This document shows positions 11,071 through 46,565 of a stretch of DNA of 64,000 nucleotides, piece after piece (positions within the stretch are counted from its first letter, which is position 1; each line of letters starts with the position of its first letter). The DNA is taken from NCBI GenBank assembly GCA_016200545.1, contig JACQEO010000084.1, positions 5,528-69,527 on the forward strand, in the 5' to 3' direction. A program made the position numbers and the translations under genes. Source of the stretch: Deltaproteobacteria bacterium (lineage in GTDB: Bacteria; Desulfobacterota; Binatia; UTPRO1). The notes below the pieces were generated by a model, which saw only the letters and a program-made list of their open reading frames with translations, had not been told where the DNA came from and did not search any database.

Positions 11071-11721
11071 ATGATCGATCACGCCCCTTCGTGCTCCGCG
11101 ATTCGTCGGCTGCTCGCCCTTGCGAGCATCCTCGTCCTGCTCGCGCACGCGCGACCCGCGGCCGCGACCACGCTGCTGCTGCTCGACCTCGACGCGCTCA
11201 CCGCCGCCGCCGATCGCGTCTTCATGGGCCGCGTCCTCACCGTCCGCAGTGGTCGCGATTCGAAGGGCCTGCCGGTCACGTGGACGACCTTCGCCGTCGA
11301 CGCGGCACTCAAGGGAGCACCGCCGAAGACGATCGAGATCAAGCAGCTCGGCGTCGACGCGCCGTTGCCCGACGGCGGCATCTTCCACATCCCCGCACTG
11401 CCGAGCTATCGCGTCGGCGACGAGGTCATCCTCTTTCTGCATCCCGAGAGCCGCGAAGGCTTCACCAGCCCCGTCGGCTTCGGCCAGGGTCGGTTCCGCA
11501 TCCGCCGTGACGGCGGCACCCCGGTCGCCGAGAACGACGTCGGCAACTCCAACCTCACGGCCGCGAGCGCCGGTAGCGTGCCCGTCGGCTCTGCGGCGAT
11601 GCGCGCCGAGACGCTCGCCGCCGGCCCGCCGTCCGCGGCAGCCGTCCTCCGGGCGCCGGCGCCGATCGCCGTCGACGAGCTCCTGACGCGCATTCGAGCA
11701 GCGGCCGATGCGTCGCGCTGA
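11071..11721 (+). CDS. Hypothetical secreted protein, coupled to the downstream metalloprotease
   Basis: Signal peptide 'MIDHAPSCSAIRRLLALASILVLLAHARPAAA'. Its 3' end overlaps the protease start by 14 nt. No recognisable domain. Confidence 0.5.
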   Translation: MIDHAPSCSAIRRLLALASILVLLAHARPAAATTLLLLDLDALTAAADRVFMGRVLTVRSGRDSKGLPVTWTTFAVDAALKGAPPKTIEIKQLGVDAPLPDGGIFHIPALPSYRVGDEVILFLHPESREGFTSPVGFGQGRFRIRRDGGTPVAENDVGNSNLTAASAGSVPVGSAAMRAETLAAGPPSAAAVLRAPAPIAVDELLTRIRAAADASR

Positions 11722-13921
11722 CCGCCGTCTCCGCGGCGTGCGCGCCCTCGCCGCGCCGCTGTTGGCGCTCACCGCGCTGGTCACAGGTCACGCCGACGCC
11801 GCCGGCCCGCTGATCGTGAACGGCGCCGGGACGCCGCTGGTGTGGAGCGGCGGCGTCGTCTCGTGGAATCCCGATCGCGGCACGCTCGGCACCCTCTCGA
11901 ACGCCGAGACCGTGAGCCTCGCTAGCGACAACTTCGCGAAGTGGCAGGCGGTGCCGACCGCGGCGCTCGCGATCTCCAACACCGGGGCGCTTCCCGTCGA
12001 CGTCACCACCGCCAACGTGAACGCGTTCATCGGTATCTGCGGCGACGGTCTCAGCCCGATCGTTTTCGACACCGACGGTTCGATCACTGATTCGCTGTTC
12101 GGCGTCGGCGCCTCCAATTCCATTCTCGGTTTCGCCGGTCCGGAGTGCGGCTCGCTGGTGCCGCCGGTGATCACCGAGGCCTCCGCGGTCCTGAACGGCA
12201 AGTTCATCGACGGCATTGCGACCGCGGGCAATCCGGAGATCAGCATCACGAGCTTCGCCCCGGTCCTGCTGCATGAATTCGGTCACTACCTCAACCTCGA
12301 GCACTCGCAGATCAATCTCCTCGAGGCGTTCGATCACAACGCCGCCAATGACGACACCATCGCGACGATGTTCCCGTTTCTGGTGAACGGCACCGAGGAG
12401 TCGATCCTGTCTCGCGATGACGAGGTCGCGATCTCGACGCTCTATCCGACGGCGGCGTTCAGCACCGCGTTCGGACGCATCACCGGCTCCGTGCTCCGTA
12501 GTGACGGGGTGACGCCGTTCCAGGGTGCGTACGTGATCGCCCGCAACGTCGCCGATCCCCGTCACGACGCCATCGGCTACGCCTCGGGCGAGCGCTACGT
12601 CCCGAGCGCGGCCGGTGGTCCGCCGGCTCCCGCGCTGCAAGGATTCTACGAGTTCCCGGGCCTCACGCCGGGGGCGAGCTACACCGTCGAGATCGAGCAG
12701 ATCTATGCCGGCTTCACCGGCGGTTCGAGTGTCGGCCCGTTCAGCACACCCGTCGTCTTGCCGGGGCCGGCCGAGTTCTGGAGCGGAGCGAACGAGGCCG
12801 CCGCTGACCCGCCCGACGACCCCAACGCGCCGGGCACGCCGATCATGGCCGTCGCGGCTGCGACGACCAGCGGCGTCGACATCGTCTTGAACGCCCTCGT
12901 GCCGCCGCCGAACGACGCCTGCGCCGACGCCACCAGCATCGCCGCCTTCCCATATGGCGACGGCGAGAGTACCGCAGGCGCGACCAGCGCATCGGGCGAT
13001 CCGATCCAGAACTGCAGCCCGGGCACGACGACCGCGAACGCCAACAGCGTCTGGTACCGCTTCACGGCACCGGCGGACGGCACCGTGACCGTCTCCACGA
13101 CCGGGAGCGACTACGACACCGTGCTCTCCGCCCACACCGGCGCGTGTGGCACGCTCGCCACCGTCGCCTGCGACGACGACATGACCGCTACCAACTTGCA
13201 GTCGGCGATCGGGTTCGCGGTGTCGGGCGGCACCAGCTACCTCGTCGAGGTCACGCAGTACGGCGCGCCCGGCGGTGGCGCGCTGCAGATCGCGGCCACG
13301 TTCACCGCGGGAGCCGCGGCGGGCTGTAATATCCCCGCGCCGGGAGCGTGCATCCCCGGAAAGGGCAAGCCGAACAGCGATTGCGTGACCGAGTGGCTGC
13401 TCGAGCCAGTGCCGCCGATCGACCGCGCGAAGGTGCCGCGCCGTAACGTCCCGGCGGCACGTCTCGCCTGCCACGACGGCGATCCGAGCTGCGACTTCGA
13501 CGGCGGCATCAAGGACGGCGGCTGCACCTTCCACGTAGCGGTGTGCGTGAACAACGACGATCCGCGCGCCGCGGCGGCCGGCTGTGTGCCGACGTCGATC
13601 GCGAGCTACCTCGTCAAGAAGCCGAGCGCGACGCGACCGAAAGACGCCGCCGACGTCGCCAACGGCGCGGCGCTTCGCAACGCGATCGCGGCGCTCGCAC
13701 TCTCCGGCGGCACCGTCGCGGGCGGGCTGGTCTCGTTCGTGCCGGCGGAGTCGATCGCGAACACCTGCACGCCCTTCCAGAACATCCGCGTTCCGATCGG
13801 CGCGCGGACGCTGCGCACGCGCGCGGCGACCGGGGCCGGCGTCGTCGACACCGATGGGCTGTCGCTGCGGTGTCTCCCAGCCGCGGCGGCCGCGGCAGCG
13901 CCGCGCCGCGGGCATCACTAG
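11708..13921 (+). CDS. Secreted metzincin-type zinc metalloprotease (matrixin-like HEFGHxxxLEHS) with a pre-peptidase C-terminal (PPC-like) domain and a Cys-rich C-terminal module
   Basis: Signal peptide 'LAAPLLALTALVTGHADAAG'. Zinc motif 'VLLHEFGHYLNLEHSQ' (HExxHxxxxxH). A PPC-like beta domain ('…NSVWYRFTAPADGTVTVSTTGSDYDTVLSAHTGACGT…'). A C-terminal ~198-aa Cys-rich tail. Confidence 0.7.
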   Translation: MRRADRRLRGVRALAAPLLALTALVTGHADAAGPLIVNGAGTPLVWSGGVVSWNPDRGTLGTLSNAETVSLASDNFAKWQAVPTAALAISNTGALPVDVTTANVNAFIGICGDGLSPIVFDTDGSITDSLFGVGASNSILGFAGPECGSLVPPVITEASAVLNGKFIDGIATAGNPEISITSFAPVLLHEFGHYLNLEHSQINLLEAFDHNAANDDTIATMFPFLVNGTEESILSRDDEVAISTLYPTAAFSTAFGRITGSVLRSDGVTPFQGAYVIARNVADPRHDAIGYASGERYVPSAAGGPPAPALQGFYEFPGLTPGASYTVEIEQIYAGFTGGSSVGPFSTPVVLPGPAEFWSGANEAAADPPDDPNAPGTPIMAVAAATTSGVDIVLNALVPPPNDACADATSIAAFPYGDGESTAGATSASGDPIQNCSPGTTTANANSVWYRFTAPADGTVTVSTTGSDYDTVLSAHTGACGTLATVACDDDMTATNLQSAIGFAVSGGTSYLVEVTQYGAPGGGALQIAATFTAGAAAGCNIPAPGACIPGKGKPNSDCVTEWLLEPVPPIDRAKVPRRNVPAARLACHDGDPSCDFDGGIKDGGCTFHVAVCVNNDDPRAAAAGCVPTSIASYLVKKPSATRPKDAADVANGAALRNAIAALALSGGTVAGGLVSFVPAESIANTCTPFQNIRVPIGARTLRTRAATGAGVVDTDGLSLRCLPAAAAAAAPRRGHH

Positions 13922-41701: not shown

Positions 41702-42898
41702 TCAGTCCGCGGTCGCCTCGGAATACACCGGCCGCGTCGCCGCCGAATACGGCCACGGCTCCGCGTCCGTCACGGCGATCAGCGCGCGCACGAAGGCGTC
41801 CTGGCGCGCGCGCGCGTCTGGCACGGGAACCCCGTGGTGCAGGACCGCGAAGCGCACGACCCCGAAGCGCCGGGTGCGGAGCGCGCCGGCGAGGGCGGAG
41901 GCACCGACCGAGCCGAAGGTGCCGGTCTTGCCGACGACGATCCCGGGACGTTCGGTCACCCGATCCTCGAGTGTCCCGTGATCGATGCCCGACACCGGGA
42001 GCGCCGCGGTGAGGTCGTTGCCGTGACGCGCGAGCTCGTCCATGAGCGCGCCGAGGAGCGCGACCGCAGCGCGTGGGCTCATCCTGTTGGTCTCGCCCGC
42101 GCCGGCGCCGTTGTCGATCACGATCTCGTCCCGCATCGCTTCGGGTACGTGCGCGCGGGCGTTCTCTTGAACGGCGGCCGCACCGCCGACCGCGTCGGCC
42201 GCAAAGTGGAAGACGTTGTTCGAGTAGCAGTTGAGCGCCTTGACGACGTGGAGGAGCGGCGGCGAGTGGAGCGCGGCGAGCGCTCGCCCGGGGCCCGACT
42301 TCGATCGCCGGCCGAGAAAGACGAGCGCGGTCTCGCGCAAACCCTCCGACGTCCCGTCGAGGTCGGTGACCAGCGCGCGCGCCTCGCCCCCGGCCTTGCC
42401 TGCGAGCACGGCGCCGAATCGCCGCCCACCCGGGTCCGGCTGCCAGTCGAACAGCAGCGGCCCGCGCACGACGAGTCGCCCCTCGACGACCCGCAGCCCG
42501 CGCGTGTGTAGCCGTCGGAGCAGCAGCAACGCGCTCTCGTCGACCAGGAACGGGTCGCCTCCGCCCTCGACGACGAGGTCTCCCGCGAGACGTCCCGCGC
42601 GTAGCGGACCGGCGCCGCGCAGGCGCGTCTCGAAGCGATGCGTCGGACCGAGACGCGCGAGCAACGCGAGCGACGTCGCGATCTTGGTGACCGATGCGGG
42701 ATGCACGGCGTGATCGGCGGCTTGCGCGACGAGGATCGTACCGTCGCCGGCGACGGCATACACCCCCTGTCCCTCGCCGACGGTCGATCGCGCCAGCCCT
42801 TGCAGTGCCGGCTCGGCAGCGGCGAGGGTCGCGTACAGCACGAGAGCGAGCGCTCCCATCGTCCTCGTCGCGGGCGACTCGGGTGGCATGGCGAGCAT
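41702..42898 (-). CDS. D-alanyl-D-alanine carboxypeptidase/endopeptidase, PBP4 (S13, DacB-like)
   Basis: Ordered SxxK 'ASVTK', SxN 'YSNN' and KTG 'GKTGT' motifs, plus a signal peptide. Confidence 0.7.
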   Translation of the reverse strand: MLAMPPESPATRTMGALALVLYATLAAAEPALQGLARSTVGEGQGVYAVAGDGTILVAQAADHAVHPASVTKIATSLALLARLGPTHRFETRLRGAGPLRAGRLAGDLVVEGGGDPFLVDESALLLLRRLHTRGLRVVEGRLVVRGPLLFDWQPDPGGRRFGAVLAGKAGGEARALVTDLDGTSEGLRETALVFLGRRSKSGPGRALAALHSPPLLHVVKALNCYSNNVFHFAADAVGGAAAVQENARAHVPEAMRDEIVIDNGAGAGETNRMSPRAAVALLGALMDELARHGNDLTAALPVSGIDHGTLEDRVTERPGIVVGKTGTFGSVGASALAGALRTRRFGVVRFAVLHHGVPVPDARARQDAFVRALIAVTDAEPWPYSAATRPVYSEATAD

Positions 42899-43044
42899 TG
42901 TGCGGACGACTGCCCGGCCGTCAACGAGCGGCCAAACCGTCGCGCCATCCGTCGCGTTCTTCCGCATCATTCCTAGTTGACCGCGCGATCGCGATGTCTC
43001 ACAGTTCGGCAGCAGACGATCCGTTCCATCTCATGAGGTACCGC

Positions 43045-44583
43045 ATGCGAAGGACGACGCGCGCACCGATGAACCCCGAGCCTTCCAACCTGACGCGCGC
43101 ACGCTGCAGTGCGCTGCTCGCGGCGCTGCTGATCGTGGCGCCGGTCGCTCCGTCCGCGCACGCCGCGCCGCGTGGCAAGCGCCACCCGCGCGACGTCGCC
43201 CTCGGTCTCAGCGTGCAACCGGGGCCGCAATGTCACCTCGGTCGTCACACGCTGACGTATCACGGCGGCGACCTCGTCCAGAACGTCGCCGTGTTCATCC
43301 TGTTTTGGGGTCCCGAGTGGCAAACCGATGCCGAGCATCAGGCGGCCGCCGCCTCCCTGCGCACGATGTACCACCAACTCGGCGGCAGTGAGTACGGCTG
43401 CTCGTGGCAGGAATTCGCGTTGCCGGGCAGTCCGATCGGCGGCGGATCGTATGCCGGCGACGAGATCATCCCGACGCCGCCCGTCTCCCCGGGCCAGCAG
43501 CTCGACGACGCCGACATCCAGGCGCGGATCCTGACGGAGGTACAGGCCCACCGCGCGCCGGACGCGACCGACGACACGTTCTATGTCGTCGTGCCGCCCA
43601 AAGGCGTGCCGGTGATCGCCGGTGGCGAGACGGGCTGCGGCGGGACGAACTTCACCTTCTGCGGCTATCACGACAGCTTCGCGAGCGGCGGGAAGCGCCT
43701 CCGCTACACGGTCCTGCCGTACCCGTGCAGCTCGGGCGGCGCGACTTGCTTCGTCGATTTCCAAGAGAGTGTCGTACCCTCCTTCCAGGCCGTCGGCTCG
43801 CACGAGCTCTCGGAGACGGTGACCGATCCCGATCAGCCCCCGGTCGGTGGGAGCGGCTGGTTCGACGACCACAGCGGCGACGAGGACGCCGACATTTGTG
43901 CGAGCGACACTTGCCTCGTCGACCTCCCCGTGGGCGTGGACGCGTTCACCGTCAACTCGCTGTGGTCGAACCTCGGCGGCGACTGTGTCGCCAGCGCTCC
44001 CTGCGCGGTGCCACCGGCCGCGTGCACCGATCCCGCGCCGGGCGCCTGCGTCACCAACACCCGCAGTCCGCAGGCCTGCGACCTCGAGTGGCACGTCGAG
44101 CCGAACCTCACCCGCGACCGCAATGGCTTCGCCGGCGGGGTGGTCTCTTGCGCCGACGGCCAGCCGTTCTGCGACGTCGATGCCACGGCGGACGGCCGGT
44201 GCACGTTCCACGTCGCGGTCTGCCTGAATAGCACCGACCCGCGCTTCGCCTGCACCGCGAGCGCCGTCGATTCCGTGCAGCTGCGCGGCAAGCTCGCCCG
44301 CAGCTCGGACCCGACCGATAACGCGAATGCCGCCGCGCTCCTCCCGGCGCTCGAGAATGCCGACCCCGGCAGCGCCGGCGCCGCGACGGGGAGCGTCGTC
44401 ACGTACACCCCGGCCGCCGCCACCAGCGACGCGTGCAGCAGCTATGTCGACGTCGTCGTCCCGGTGAAGTCGCGCAACGGGCGCATCACACCGGGAAAGC
44501 GTACGCTACAGGTGGCGACGCGAACCGCGACCAGTAAGGTGAGCGAGAAGCTGACGCTGATCTGTACGCCGACGTTCCTCTGA
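43045..44583 (+). CDS. Secreted protein with an N-terminal PHI-1/EXORDIUM-like domain and the same Cys-rich C-terminal module as the metalloprotease at 11708..13921
   Basis: AGGT-N6-ATG. Signal peptide '…CSALLAALLIVAPVAPSAHA'. 'LTYHGGDLVQNVAVFILFWGPEW' resembles the Phi_1 (PF04674) N-motif. The C-terminal 178 aa align with the C-terminal 198 aa of the metalloprotease. Confidence 0.6.
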   Translation: MRRTTRAPMNPEPSNLTRARCSALLAALLIVAPVAPSAHAAPRGKRHPRDVALGLSVQPGPQCHLGRHTLTYHGGDLVQNVAVFILFWGPEWQTDAEHQAAAASLRTMYHQLGGSEYGCSWQEFALPGSPIGGGSYAGDEIIPTPPVSPGQQLDDADIQARILTEVQAHRAPDATDDTFYVVVPPKGVPVIAGGETGCGGTNFTFCGYHDSFASGGKRLRYTVLPYPCSSGGATCFVDFQESVVPSFQAVGSHELSETVTDPDQPPVGGSGWFDDHSGDEDADICASDTCLVDLPVGVDAFTVNSLWSNLGGDCVASAPCAVPPAACTDPAPGACVTNTRSPQACDLEWHVEPNLTRDRNGFAGGVVSCADGQPFCDVDATADGRCTFHVAVCLNSTDPRFACTASAVDSVQLRGKLARSSDPTDNANAAALLPALENADPGSAGAATGSVVTYTPAAATSDACSSYVDVVVPVKSRNGRITPGKRTLQVATRTATSKVSEKLTLICTPTFL

Positions 44584-44611: not shown

Positions 44612-44944
44612 TTGACCGCACGCGATATTGGGGTGTACGAATCGCGCCACGTGAAGCCGCGCGCGACGTCACTGCTGTTGCTCGTCCTCCTTTCTCTGAG
44701 CGGTCGCGCCGCGCTCGCCCACCCCGATACGCTCGGCGAAGCGGATCCCTATTGGCAGCAGAGCGCGAATGCCGCGCGCGACGAGAGCGCCAAAGCGACA
44801 CGGGGCGACACCCCTTCGGGACAGTCGACGGCGGTATCCCGGCTGCTCAAAGGCTTCGCCTACGCGTCGGGCGGCGTGTCCCTGCTGTTCGTGCTCTCGT
44901 TGGTGCGCTCGATGCGGGGCTCGCAACGGCGGGCGCGAGCCTGA
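44612..44944 (+). CDS. Small hypothetical protein with a signal peptide and C-terminal TM segment, immediately upstream of the Zn/Mn ABC ATPase
   Basis: '…RATSLLLLVLLSLSGRAALAHP…GFAYASGGVSLLFVLSLV'. The start is ambiguous (ATG at 44612 or GTG at 44651). Confidence 0.4.
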   Translation: MTARDIGVYESRHVKPRATSLLLLVLLSLSGRAALAHPDTLGEADPYWQQSANAARDESAKATRGDTPSGQSTAVSRLLKGFAYASGGVSLLFVLSLVRSMRGSQRRARA

Positions 44945-44970: not shown

Positions 44971-45690
44971 GTGAGCGCGGACGCCCTGCCCCTCGTCGAG
45001 GTGTGCGACGTCACCGTCCGGCGCGAGCGCGAGCTGCTGTTGGATGCGGTCTCGCTCGCCCTCGCGCCGGGATCGATCACCGTGCTCGTCGGTGCCAACG
45101 GCGCCGGCAAGAGCACGCTCATCGCCGCGATCCTCGGACAGATCGAGTTCAGCGGGCGTATCCTCCTTCACTGGCGCGGGAGCGGACGGATCGGCCTCGT
45201 GCCGCAACGCTTCGCGGTCGACGCGACGCTGCCACTCACCGCCGGCGAGTTTCTCGCTCTGTCGCGCCAGCGCCGCCCGGTCTGCCTCGGGATCTCCAGA
45301 GCCACGCGCGCACGCGTCGACGCGTTGCTCGCCGGAGCCGGCCTTTCCGCGGCTGCATCACGACCACTCGGCTCGCTGTCGGGTGGTGAAATTCAGCGGC
45401 TGCTGCTCGCGAACGCCATGGATCCGATCCCGGAGCTGTTGGTGCTCGATGAGCCCGCGACCGGCCTCGACGACGGCGCGGTCCGGCAGTTCGAGGCGCG
45501 ACTGCTCGCGGCGCGCGCGCAGTCCGGCGTGACGGTGCTCATGGTCTCCCACGATCTCGCGCAGGCGCGCCGTCTCGCCGATCTCGCGGTCATCCTCGAC
45601 CACCGCGTGGCGCGCAGCGGCCGGCCGGCGGAAACGCTCGCGACCGCCATCGAACCGACACTCGCGGCACTCGTCGCACCGCCGGTATGA
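44971..45690 (+). CDS. Metal (Zn/Mn) ABC transporter ATP-binding protein (ZnuC/MntA-like)
   Basis: Walker A 'GANGAGKSTL', signature 'LSGGEIQRLLLANAM', Walker B 'LLVLDEPATGLD'. GTG start inferred; no in-frame ATG. Confidence 0.75.
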   Translation: MSADALPLVEVCDVTVRRERELLLDAVSLALAPGSITVLVGANGAGKSTLIAAILGQIEFSGRILLHWRGSGRIGLVPQRFAVDATLPLTAGEFLALSRQRRPVCLGISRATRARVDALLAGAGLSAAASRPLGSLSGGEIQRLLLANAMDPIPELLVLDEPATGLDDGAVRQFEARLLAARAQSGVTVLMVSHDLAQARRLADLAVILDHRVARSGRPAETLATAIEPTLAALVAPPV

Positions 45691-46565
45691 GCGTGCTCTA
45701 CGAATGGTTGGCTGGACTGGCGCAGGACGGCCGCATTCCCGCGAGCCTTGGCTACGCCTTCGTCGTACGCGGCGCGATCGCCGTGCTGCTCCTCGCGCCG
45801 CTGCTCGGCGGCATCAGCCACCTCGTCGTCGCGCGCCGCCTGGCGTTCTTGAGCACGGCGCTCGGACAAGCGGCGCTCACCGGGTTGACGATCGGCCTCG
45901 TGCTCGGCGAGCCCTTGAACGCACCGTACGGCGGCATCTTCGGATTCTGTCTGCTGTCCGCGATCGGCATGGTGTAGGTGAAGCGTCGCGCGTCATTGCC
46001 GTCGGACACGCTCATCGGCGTCTTCCTCTCGATGACGCTCGGCCTCGGGATCTGCCTTCTCGTGGCCGTGACCAAGCGGTTCAACATTCATCAGATCGAG
46101 GCCGTCATGTTCGGGAGCATCCTCACCGTGACCGACGCGGATCTGGGCTTGCTCCTCGCCGCCGGGATCGTCGTCGCCGGCGTGCTCGCGTGGCACTACA
46201 ACGCGCTGCTCCTCGACAGCGTGAGCCCGCCCCTCGCGCGGGTATCGGGCGTCTCCGCGGCGGCGCTCGAATACCTCTTCGTCGTGCTTCTCACCGTGGC
46301 GATCGTCATTTCGCTCAAAGTGATCGGCGCGTTGTTGGTCGAGGCGCTGGTCATCGTTCCCGCGGCGTCCGGTCGAAACCTCGCCCGCAGCACGGTTAGC
46401 TATCTGGTGTGGAGCGTGCTCACGGCGTTGGCGGCGGGTCTCGGAGGTCTTGCCCTCTCCACCCGTCTCCTGGTGCCGAGCGGCGGTGCCATCGTCCTGG
46501 CGCTCGCCGCGCTCTTCTTCGCCACGCTCGCGATCCACGGGTTGCGGGCGCGCGTCGCGGGCTAA
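45687..46565 (+). pseudogene. ABC-3 family metal permease (ZnuB/MntB-like) interrupted by an in-frame TAG at 45975-45977
   Basis: Two same-frame ORFs (96 aa and 195 aa) sum to a normal ~291-aa ZnuB. The junction 'LLSAIGMV*VKRRASLPSDTLIGVF' aligns with E. coli ZnuB '…[21 protein letters not shown]', putting TAG where TGG (Trp) is expected. Confidence 0.7.

Follow-up and report, generated by a model that had tools for sequence, protein, structure and literature searches.

An uncatalogued cysteine-rich C-terminal domain family and its pairing with a divergent bacterial Phi_1/EXORDIUM domain

The window analysed here, 64,000 nucleotides of contig JACQEO010000084.1 from an uncultured member of the Binatia labelled "Deltaproteobacteria bacterium", contained two forward-strand genes whose products ended in the same cysteine-rich domain, referred to below as the tail. 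The focal gene, located in the open reading frame (ORF) 42694..44583, encoded a predicted secreted protein with an N-terminal Phi_1-like domain and the tail at its C-terminus (tail 2). The other copy (tail 1) formed the C-terminus of the product of ORF 11708..13921. The tail was an uncatalogued domain family, absent from Pfam and NCBIfam. With slightly better than even confidence, we consider it to be a C-terminal domain for localisation or anchoring that is enriched in one lineage and would fix the destination of the protein that carries it. The family is new, and the niche in which it falls, that of the C-terminal localisation or accessory module, is a known one; in the focal protein, it is attached to a divergent bacterial homologue of EXORDIUM/PHI-1. 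The features and their coordinates are collected in Table 1, and residues of the focal protein were numbered from the ATG at 43069 (504 amino acids).

The tail and its family

The preliminary description had regarded the two tails as copies of one module, and they were found to be homologous. Tail 2, the last 178 residues of the focal protein, was aligned with tail 1 by BLASTP over 187 columns with an identity of 34% (80.9 bits, E=4e-24), and all ten cysteines were in register. The window had a G+C content of 68.5%, and both tails were rich in Ala, Gly, Thr, and Pro, which would suit a likeness without homology, as a compositional by-product of a GC-rich genome that encodes Ala/Gly/Pro/Cys-rich proteins. 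This explanation was refuted. The E-value of 4e-24 was obtained with compositional adjustment, and the Smith-Waterman score of 262 lay 32 standard deviations above that of composition-preserving shuffles (38.4 ± 7.0 in 1000 shuffles; z=32), with ten of ten cysteines in register. Furthermore, more than 1,200 additional clusters matched the tail profile at E≤1e-10. The probability left to a compositional origin is negligible.

Tail 2 had previously been placed from position 44047 onwards. This position encodes Cys327 (CVTNTRS...), where the family-wide tail core begins, and the placement holds for the core; the similarity between the two tails, however, began about 10 residues further upstream, where a C-x-x-P-A-P-G-x-C segment at 44023-44049 was aligned with 13325-13351. 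The junction AACTDPAPGA in this region was common to tail 1 and the orthologues and was absent from the wider tail family. The focal protein ended in ...LTLICTPTFL, with the last codon ending at 44580 and the stop codon at 44581-44583. A tblastn search of the window with both tails gave no third copy, all other matches having E>1.

The tail was characterised by ten conserved cysteines, which presumably form five disulfides, and by an acidic C-x-DGDP-x-CD-x-DG-x-x-DG-x-C loop. The AlphaFold2 (AF2) model of the tail was confident and predicted a beta-sandwich of about 180 residues with a generic Ig-like fold.

A profile of 26 tails was searched against 1.84 billion cluster representatives and retrieved 1,918 of them at E≤1e-3, 1,258 at E≤1e-10, and 326 at E≤1e-30. 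Position and copy statistics were taken from the 141 best-scoring new representatives. The module ended no more than 10 residues from the C-terminus in 131 of these (93%), and it was internal or N-terminal in 8 (~6%). Two copies, one internal and one terminal, were present in 23/141. Tail proteins usually stopped 2–5 residues past the last cysteine (...L-x-L-x-C-x-P), and the cysteine counts of the tails were mostly even (8, 10, 12, or 14). One subfamily (e.g. P0066-P0074 and P0143-P0161) had a Cys-rich insert of about 40 residues and 14 cysteines in total, and family proteins of about 950 amino acids bore two tails. In P0084 and P0085 the module was followed by a planctomycete-type cytochrome-like domain with a C-x-x-x-G-C-H motif, and the tail is thus not always terminal.

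Pfam-A and NCBIfam searches with both tails and 26 diverse members at E≤1 gave no match beyond scattered chance matches to single members (six Pfam and three NCBIfam models, best E of 0.005, none common to two members). Nothing was returned by a PDB sequence search with the tail family profile, and no literature on the tail was found.

The domains upstream of the tail were diverse. In 72 tail-bearing representatives, 46 Pfam families were located upstream of the tail, including DUF4215 (32/72), beta-helix/NosD, TSP3, subtilase, M28, penicillin amidase, NHL, sortilin, BNR, and PQQ dehydrogenase. The NCBIfam partners included TIGR02232 repeats (37/72), two "choice-of-anchor" families (choice_anch_Q and NxxGxxAF), and two kinds of domain that bear sorting tags elsewhere, the MtsC-like (MYXO-CTERM in Myxococcus) and the ScyF-like (PEP-CTERM). 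The TIGR02232/DUF4215 repeat was located upstream of the tail in 32–37 of these 72 other family members, and its model matched neither window protein nor the isolated tails. Many tail proteins consisted only of Cys-rich repeats and the tail. In addition, the NCBIfam model NF045500, 'Omp28-related selenoprotein', matched 6/72 tail-bearing proteins (best E of 5e-33). A signal-peptide-like N-terminus was present in 72/101 representatives versus 3/18 control ORFs; all signal-peptide calls, that of the focal protein included, were made with a crude hydrophobicity heuristic and not with a dedicated predictor.

A pattern search of one genome per GTDB species, with patterns from a Binatia-derived alignment, gave 45 loci. 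Nearly all were from metagenome-assembled genomes (MAGs) of Candidatus Binatia or "delta proteobacterium", with other labels at a few loci and with up to five tail loci per MAG. When the 45 loci were re-scanned with the profile, 52 tail-bearing ORFs were obtained, and the tail was C-terminal in most of them. Seven of the loci (L011, L016, L019, L023, L026, L030, and L035) had two tail genes within 4 kb.

Possible roles of the tail

The partner domains of the tail were unrelated, its position was C-terminal, and many copies occurred per genome; therefore, the tail probably sets the destination of a protein and not its activity. An independent disulfide-rich globular domain, partners of the choice-of-anchor type, and the lineage enrichment also agreed with a role in localisation. 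Such a tail may retain the protein on the cell surface or matrix, or attach it there; alternatively, it may be recognised by an export or display pathway. The tail would then stand in for the short signals, PEP-CTERM or MYXO-CTERM, that homologous proteins bear in other lineages. The putative sorting function named in the preliminary description fits the domain architectures, and is unproven.

Known modules with a similar placement were compared with the tail. The C-terminal domain of the type IX secretion system (T9SS; Por_Secre_tail/TIGR04183) is also an Ig-like beta-sandwich with which many unrelated secreted enzymes and adhesins end, and it is likewise lineage-restricted with many copies per genome. 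In contrast, the tail was about twice as large, was rich in cysteine, and occurred in a lineage without a known T9SS. When both tails and 26 family members were searched against Pfam and NCBIfam at E≤1, there was no match to Por_Secre_tail or TIGR04183, and a Pfam scan of 22 window ORFs, including both tail ORFs, gave no match to the T9SS machinery (PorK/L/M/N, SprA, and PorU/V).

The PEP-CTERM/exosortase and MYXO-CTERM tags occupy the same slot, since Phi_1-like, TIGR02232-repeat, MtsC-like, ScyF-like, and choice-of-anchor domains carry those tags elsewhere. These tags have about 25–35 residues and combine a motif with a transmembrane helix and a basic cluster. This architecture was absent from the tail, and no hydrophobic helix was found in the tail ends of the family. 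Dockerins, PPC domains, and carbohydrate-binding modules are also C-terminal accessories on varied secreted enzymes, and an acidic, possibly Ca2+-binding loop is common to them and the tail. However, the tail had no sequence match or specific fold match to these modules, and no cohesin-like partner was identified.

The tail could instead be an ordinary ligand-binding or adhesion module, of the kind known from carbohydrate-binding modules and Ig-like adhesin domains, that tethers diverse enzymes to a common extracellular substrate (e.g. polysaccharide, matrix, or prey surface) with no dedicated pathway. The generic Ig-like fold, the adhesin-like partner domains, and the two-copy and internal cases are consistent with such a module. 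Modules of this kind, however, are usually not confined to the protein end, whereas 93% of the tails ended within 10 residues of the C-terminus, and the partners of the tail included families that are defined by constant pairing with a C-terminal anchor. We regard a simple binding module as rather unlikely, although it is the leading alternative.

A removable C-terminal pro-domain or intramolecular chaperone, similar to PPC and aiding folding or export, appears improbable. Both tail proteins of the window were hydrolase-like, one with a metzincin-like HEFGH and the other with Phi_1 and HExxE, and the fixed packing of the tail against the N-terminal domain in the AF2 model (predicted template modelling score, pTM, of 0.83) would suit a chaperone. 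On the other hand, the partner domains were mostly not peptidases, many proteins comprised just Cys-rich repeats and the tail, and no conserved cleavage motif preceded the tail across the family.

Several observations weighed against the localisation role that we favour. The same pTM of 0.83 for the two-domain model suggests that the tail and Phi_1 domains are packed in a fixed arrangement, with no flexible tether. A globular, disulfide-rich domain of 180 residues without a transmembrane helix is unlike the classical short sorting signals. The internal and N-terminal cases (~6%) and the two-copy cases (23/141) also fit an ordinary binding module. The tail has no known machinery, ligand, or processing site, and the flanking-ORF clusters of the 45 loci contained no recurrent neighbour gene, only antisense shadow ORFs and local synteny. 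The enrichment in Binatia was partly built into the search by the Binatia-derived patterns, and at least one tail match came from a Dadabacteria MAG.

The Phi_1/EXORDIUM domain and its conserved motif

The N-terminal domain of the focal protein was firmly assigned, by profile methods only, as a divergent bacterial member of the Phi_1/EXORDIUM family (PF04674). The string LTYHGGDLVQNVAVFILFWGPEW, quoted earlier for its resemblance to plant phosphate-induced protein 1, was present at residues 62–84. The Pfam search that had been suggested as a check gave no PF04674 match to the focal protein, even at E≤10 (gathering threshold, 25 bits), and NCBIfam gave no match either; on the orthologues, PF04674 reached E ~1e-3 in 2 of 20.

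The N-domain profile (A4) retrieved stand-alone bacterial relatives with 33–38% identity and, further out, 13 proteins already annotated as PF04674. Six of ten re-scanned PF04674-annotated relatives, including P0125, P0137, and P0141, scored 72–111 bits against Pfam Phi_1 (cut-off, 25). When the N-domain profile was compared with an alignment of bona fide bacterial Phi_1 proteins by hhalign, the probability was 99.6% (E=1.8e-24, 237 columns). These bona fide proteins carried AHELSETVTDP, YHGGP, FCGWH, ENGDxC, and WxN..C, which are the motifs invariant in the focal orthologues. The signature motifs YHGG, F/YCGY/WH, HELSETVTDP, ENxDxC, and the C-terminal WxN...C were all present in the focal family, with HELSETVTDP near-identical letter by letter between the focal domain and the bona fide Phi_1 proteins. 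Therefore, from the hhalign match and the common motifs, the N-terminal domain belongs to the Phi_1/EXORDIUM family as a divergent member, and the proposed likeness to PHI-1 was borne out.

Phi_1-like relatives in other lineages ended in PEP-CTERM (P0136 and P0138) or MYXO-CTERM (P0113) at the position of the tail. The fusion had been described as unusual in itself; the combination of Phi_1 with a C-terminal anchor is known from these proteins, and the novelty lies in the type of end-piece.

Over its whole length (~240 columns), the focal N-terminal domain was homologous to the family of plant PHI-1, EXORDIUM, and EXORDIUM-like proteins (IPR006766). The focal protein differed from this family in being bacterial, in being too divergent for the Pfam model, and in having an extra C-terminal domain. 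Plant EXO resides in the apoplast and has no biochemical activity assigned to it, and one bacterial EXO homologue was known as of 2009 (PMC2661892). The focal Phi_1 protein is likewise predicted to be extracellular, from the crude signal-peptide rule and its many conserved cysteines. A PDB sequence search with the N-domain profile gave no match, and no literature was found on bacterial Phi_1 proteins or on a link between EXORDIUM and the zincin fold.

A candidate metal or catalytic site was the HELSETVTDPD motif, in which residues H245, E246, E249, T252, D253, P254, and D255 were invariant in 38 orthologues. The sequence H-E-L-S-E-T-V-T-D-P was also invariant in nine bona fide Phi_1 proteins, and in the AF2 model the motif was located at the C-terminal end of the helix of residues 235–252. 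Because the invariant H-E-x-x-E...D motif was kept on the central helix, the Phi_1 domain is most likely a metal-dependent extracellular hydrolase, with a predicted zincin-like fold and a putative metal site. By our comparison, the spacing of the motif matched that of the metzincin motif HExxHxxGxxH/D. However, metzincins such as archaemetzincin, ADAM17, and atrolysin have His at the second and third ligand positions, where the focal motif has Glu and Asp; the focal H-E-x-x-E-x-x-T-x-x-D did not match the metzincin motif itself.

Other results also argued against a zincin. A Foldseek search of the PDB with the full model gave no significant match (best E=9e-3, TM-score ~0.35); ADAM17 was returned repeatedly at non-significant values (E ~1e-2, TM-score ~0.35). 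A sequence link from Phi_1 to the metzincins was rejected, since profile comparison with the metzincin-like domain of the window itself gave no similarity. To our knowledge, HExxE is not a known zinc-binding motif. That the bacterial Phi_1 domains are metal hydrolases derived from zincins is a lead and is not established. A wider combination, which is speculative and which we doubt, would join both halves of the focal protein: the tail would serve recognition or attachment, like the T9SS C-terminal domain or dockerin, in a so far undescribed pathway by which Binatia display proteins on the surface or secrete them, and Phi_1 would be a metal hydrolase of zincin ancestry whose site is H-E-x-x-E...D.

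The focal gene, its surroundings, and implications

The probable start of the focal gene was the ATG at 43045 (512 amino acids), which is the NCBI call for the 100%-identical protein P0001, or the ATG at 43069 (MNPEPS..., 504 amino acids). P0001 came from a MAG labelled "Deltaproteobacteria bacterium". Another 61 full-length relatives were found, and those with names were from Candidatus Binatia. The relative at the Binatia MAG locus L001 was 90% identical and syntenic, and the ratio of nonsynonymous to synonymous substitution rates (dN/dS) against it was 0.30 for the N-terminal domain and 0.36 for the tail. Two orthologues carried the Joint Genome Institute label 'serine protease', which no domain search supported.

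The focal gene product is presumably a Sec-exported, disulfide-rich, two-domain protein. The AF2 model of the whole protein was confident, with a predicted local distance difference test score (pLDDT) of 85.4 and a pTM of 0.83. The predicted signal peptide had a Kyte-Doolittle maximum of 2.9, and residues 7–26 formed a helix with low pLDDT in the model. The following A-P-R-G-x-x-x-P-R segment, directly after the predicted cleavage site, was predicted to be disordered (pLDDT <50). In this motif, residues R35, G36, and P40 were invariant among the 38 orthologues, and A32 and P34 were at least 90% conserved; the motif may serve in processing or recognition.

Table 1. Features of the focal gene and of the first tail copy, in window coordinates
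Feature	Position	Strand	Basis or remark
Coding sequence of the Phi_1-like, tail-bearing protein, predicted to be secreted	43045..44583	+	ORF list; 100%-identical 512-amino-acid hypothetical protein P0001
Predicted Sec signal peptide, residues 1-32 (...VAPSAHA/A)	43069..43164	+	Basic n-region, then hydrophobic stretch
A-P-R-G-x-x-x-P-R motif, start of mature protein	43165..43191	+	Conservation in 38 orthologues
Divergent Phi_1/EXORDIUM-family domain, residues 55-316, predicted zincin-like alpha/beta fold	43231..44016	+	
HELSETVTDPD motif, H245-E246-x-x-E249-x-x-T252-x-x-D255, candidate metal/catalytic site	43801..43833	+	Conservation
Cys/Pro-rich junction AACTDPAPGA	44017..44046	+	Alignments; low pLDDT
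C-terminal Cys-rich beta-sandwich module, residues 327-504	44047..44580	+	Tail 2
First module copy, C-terminus of ORF 11708..13921	13316..13921	+	Alignment to tail 2

The product of ORF 11708..13921 was a metzincin-like protein, predicted to be secreted, with HEFGHYLNLEH encoded at 12272-12304 and weak M10/M43 Pfam matches, and its middle domain was galactose-binding/PPC-like. The orthologues of this ORF in L009 and L014 retained an adjoining nucleotidyl-transferase gene.

The neighbours of the focal gene were housekeeping or metabolic genes, including those for an aldehyde dehydrogenase and for an S13 D-Ala-D-Ala carboxypeptidase, the latter divergently transcribed relative to the focal gene; a Zn/Mn-type ABC transporter and also a Rieske oxygenase were encoded downstream. 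The adjacency to the Zn/Mn-type transporter was rejected as functional evidence: it was kept only in L001 and was absent from more distant orthologues with full flanks. The context of the focal gene thus carries no functional weight, since it was kept only in the closest relative. A promoter and terminator scan around the gene was uninformative. The ABC-3 permease was split by an in-frame TAG at 45975-45977 (ORFs 45687-45977 and 45978-46565), and L001 has TAC (Tyr) at the corresponding codon; therefore, the TAG arose by nonsense mutation or through an error in the assembly. A small ORF with a signal-peptide-like start (44612-44944, 110 amino acids) separated the focal gene from the ABC transporter; it was 86% identical in L001 and had no Pfam match.

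The Binatia are uncultured bacteria that are widespread in soils, and we know of nothing on how they display or release extracellular proteins. With about 1,900 clusters and a nearly invariable C-terminal position, the tail domain would be a practical marker for the surface and secreted proteome of Binatia, and a starting point from which partner machinery could be sought by phylogenetic profiling. Furthermore, the invariant HELSETVTDP on a predicted zincin-like scaffold provides the EXORDIUM/PHI-1 family with a biochemical hypothesis that can be tested. The plant EXO proteins are not known to retain the motif residues H, E, E, and D, and their sequence at this site is about ...ATLLANTVTNP... 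If the bacterial domains are zincin-derived hydrolases, they would give the first biochemical lead for plant EXORDIUM proteins, which would possibly be catalytically dead descendants.
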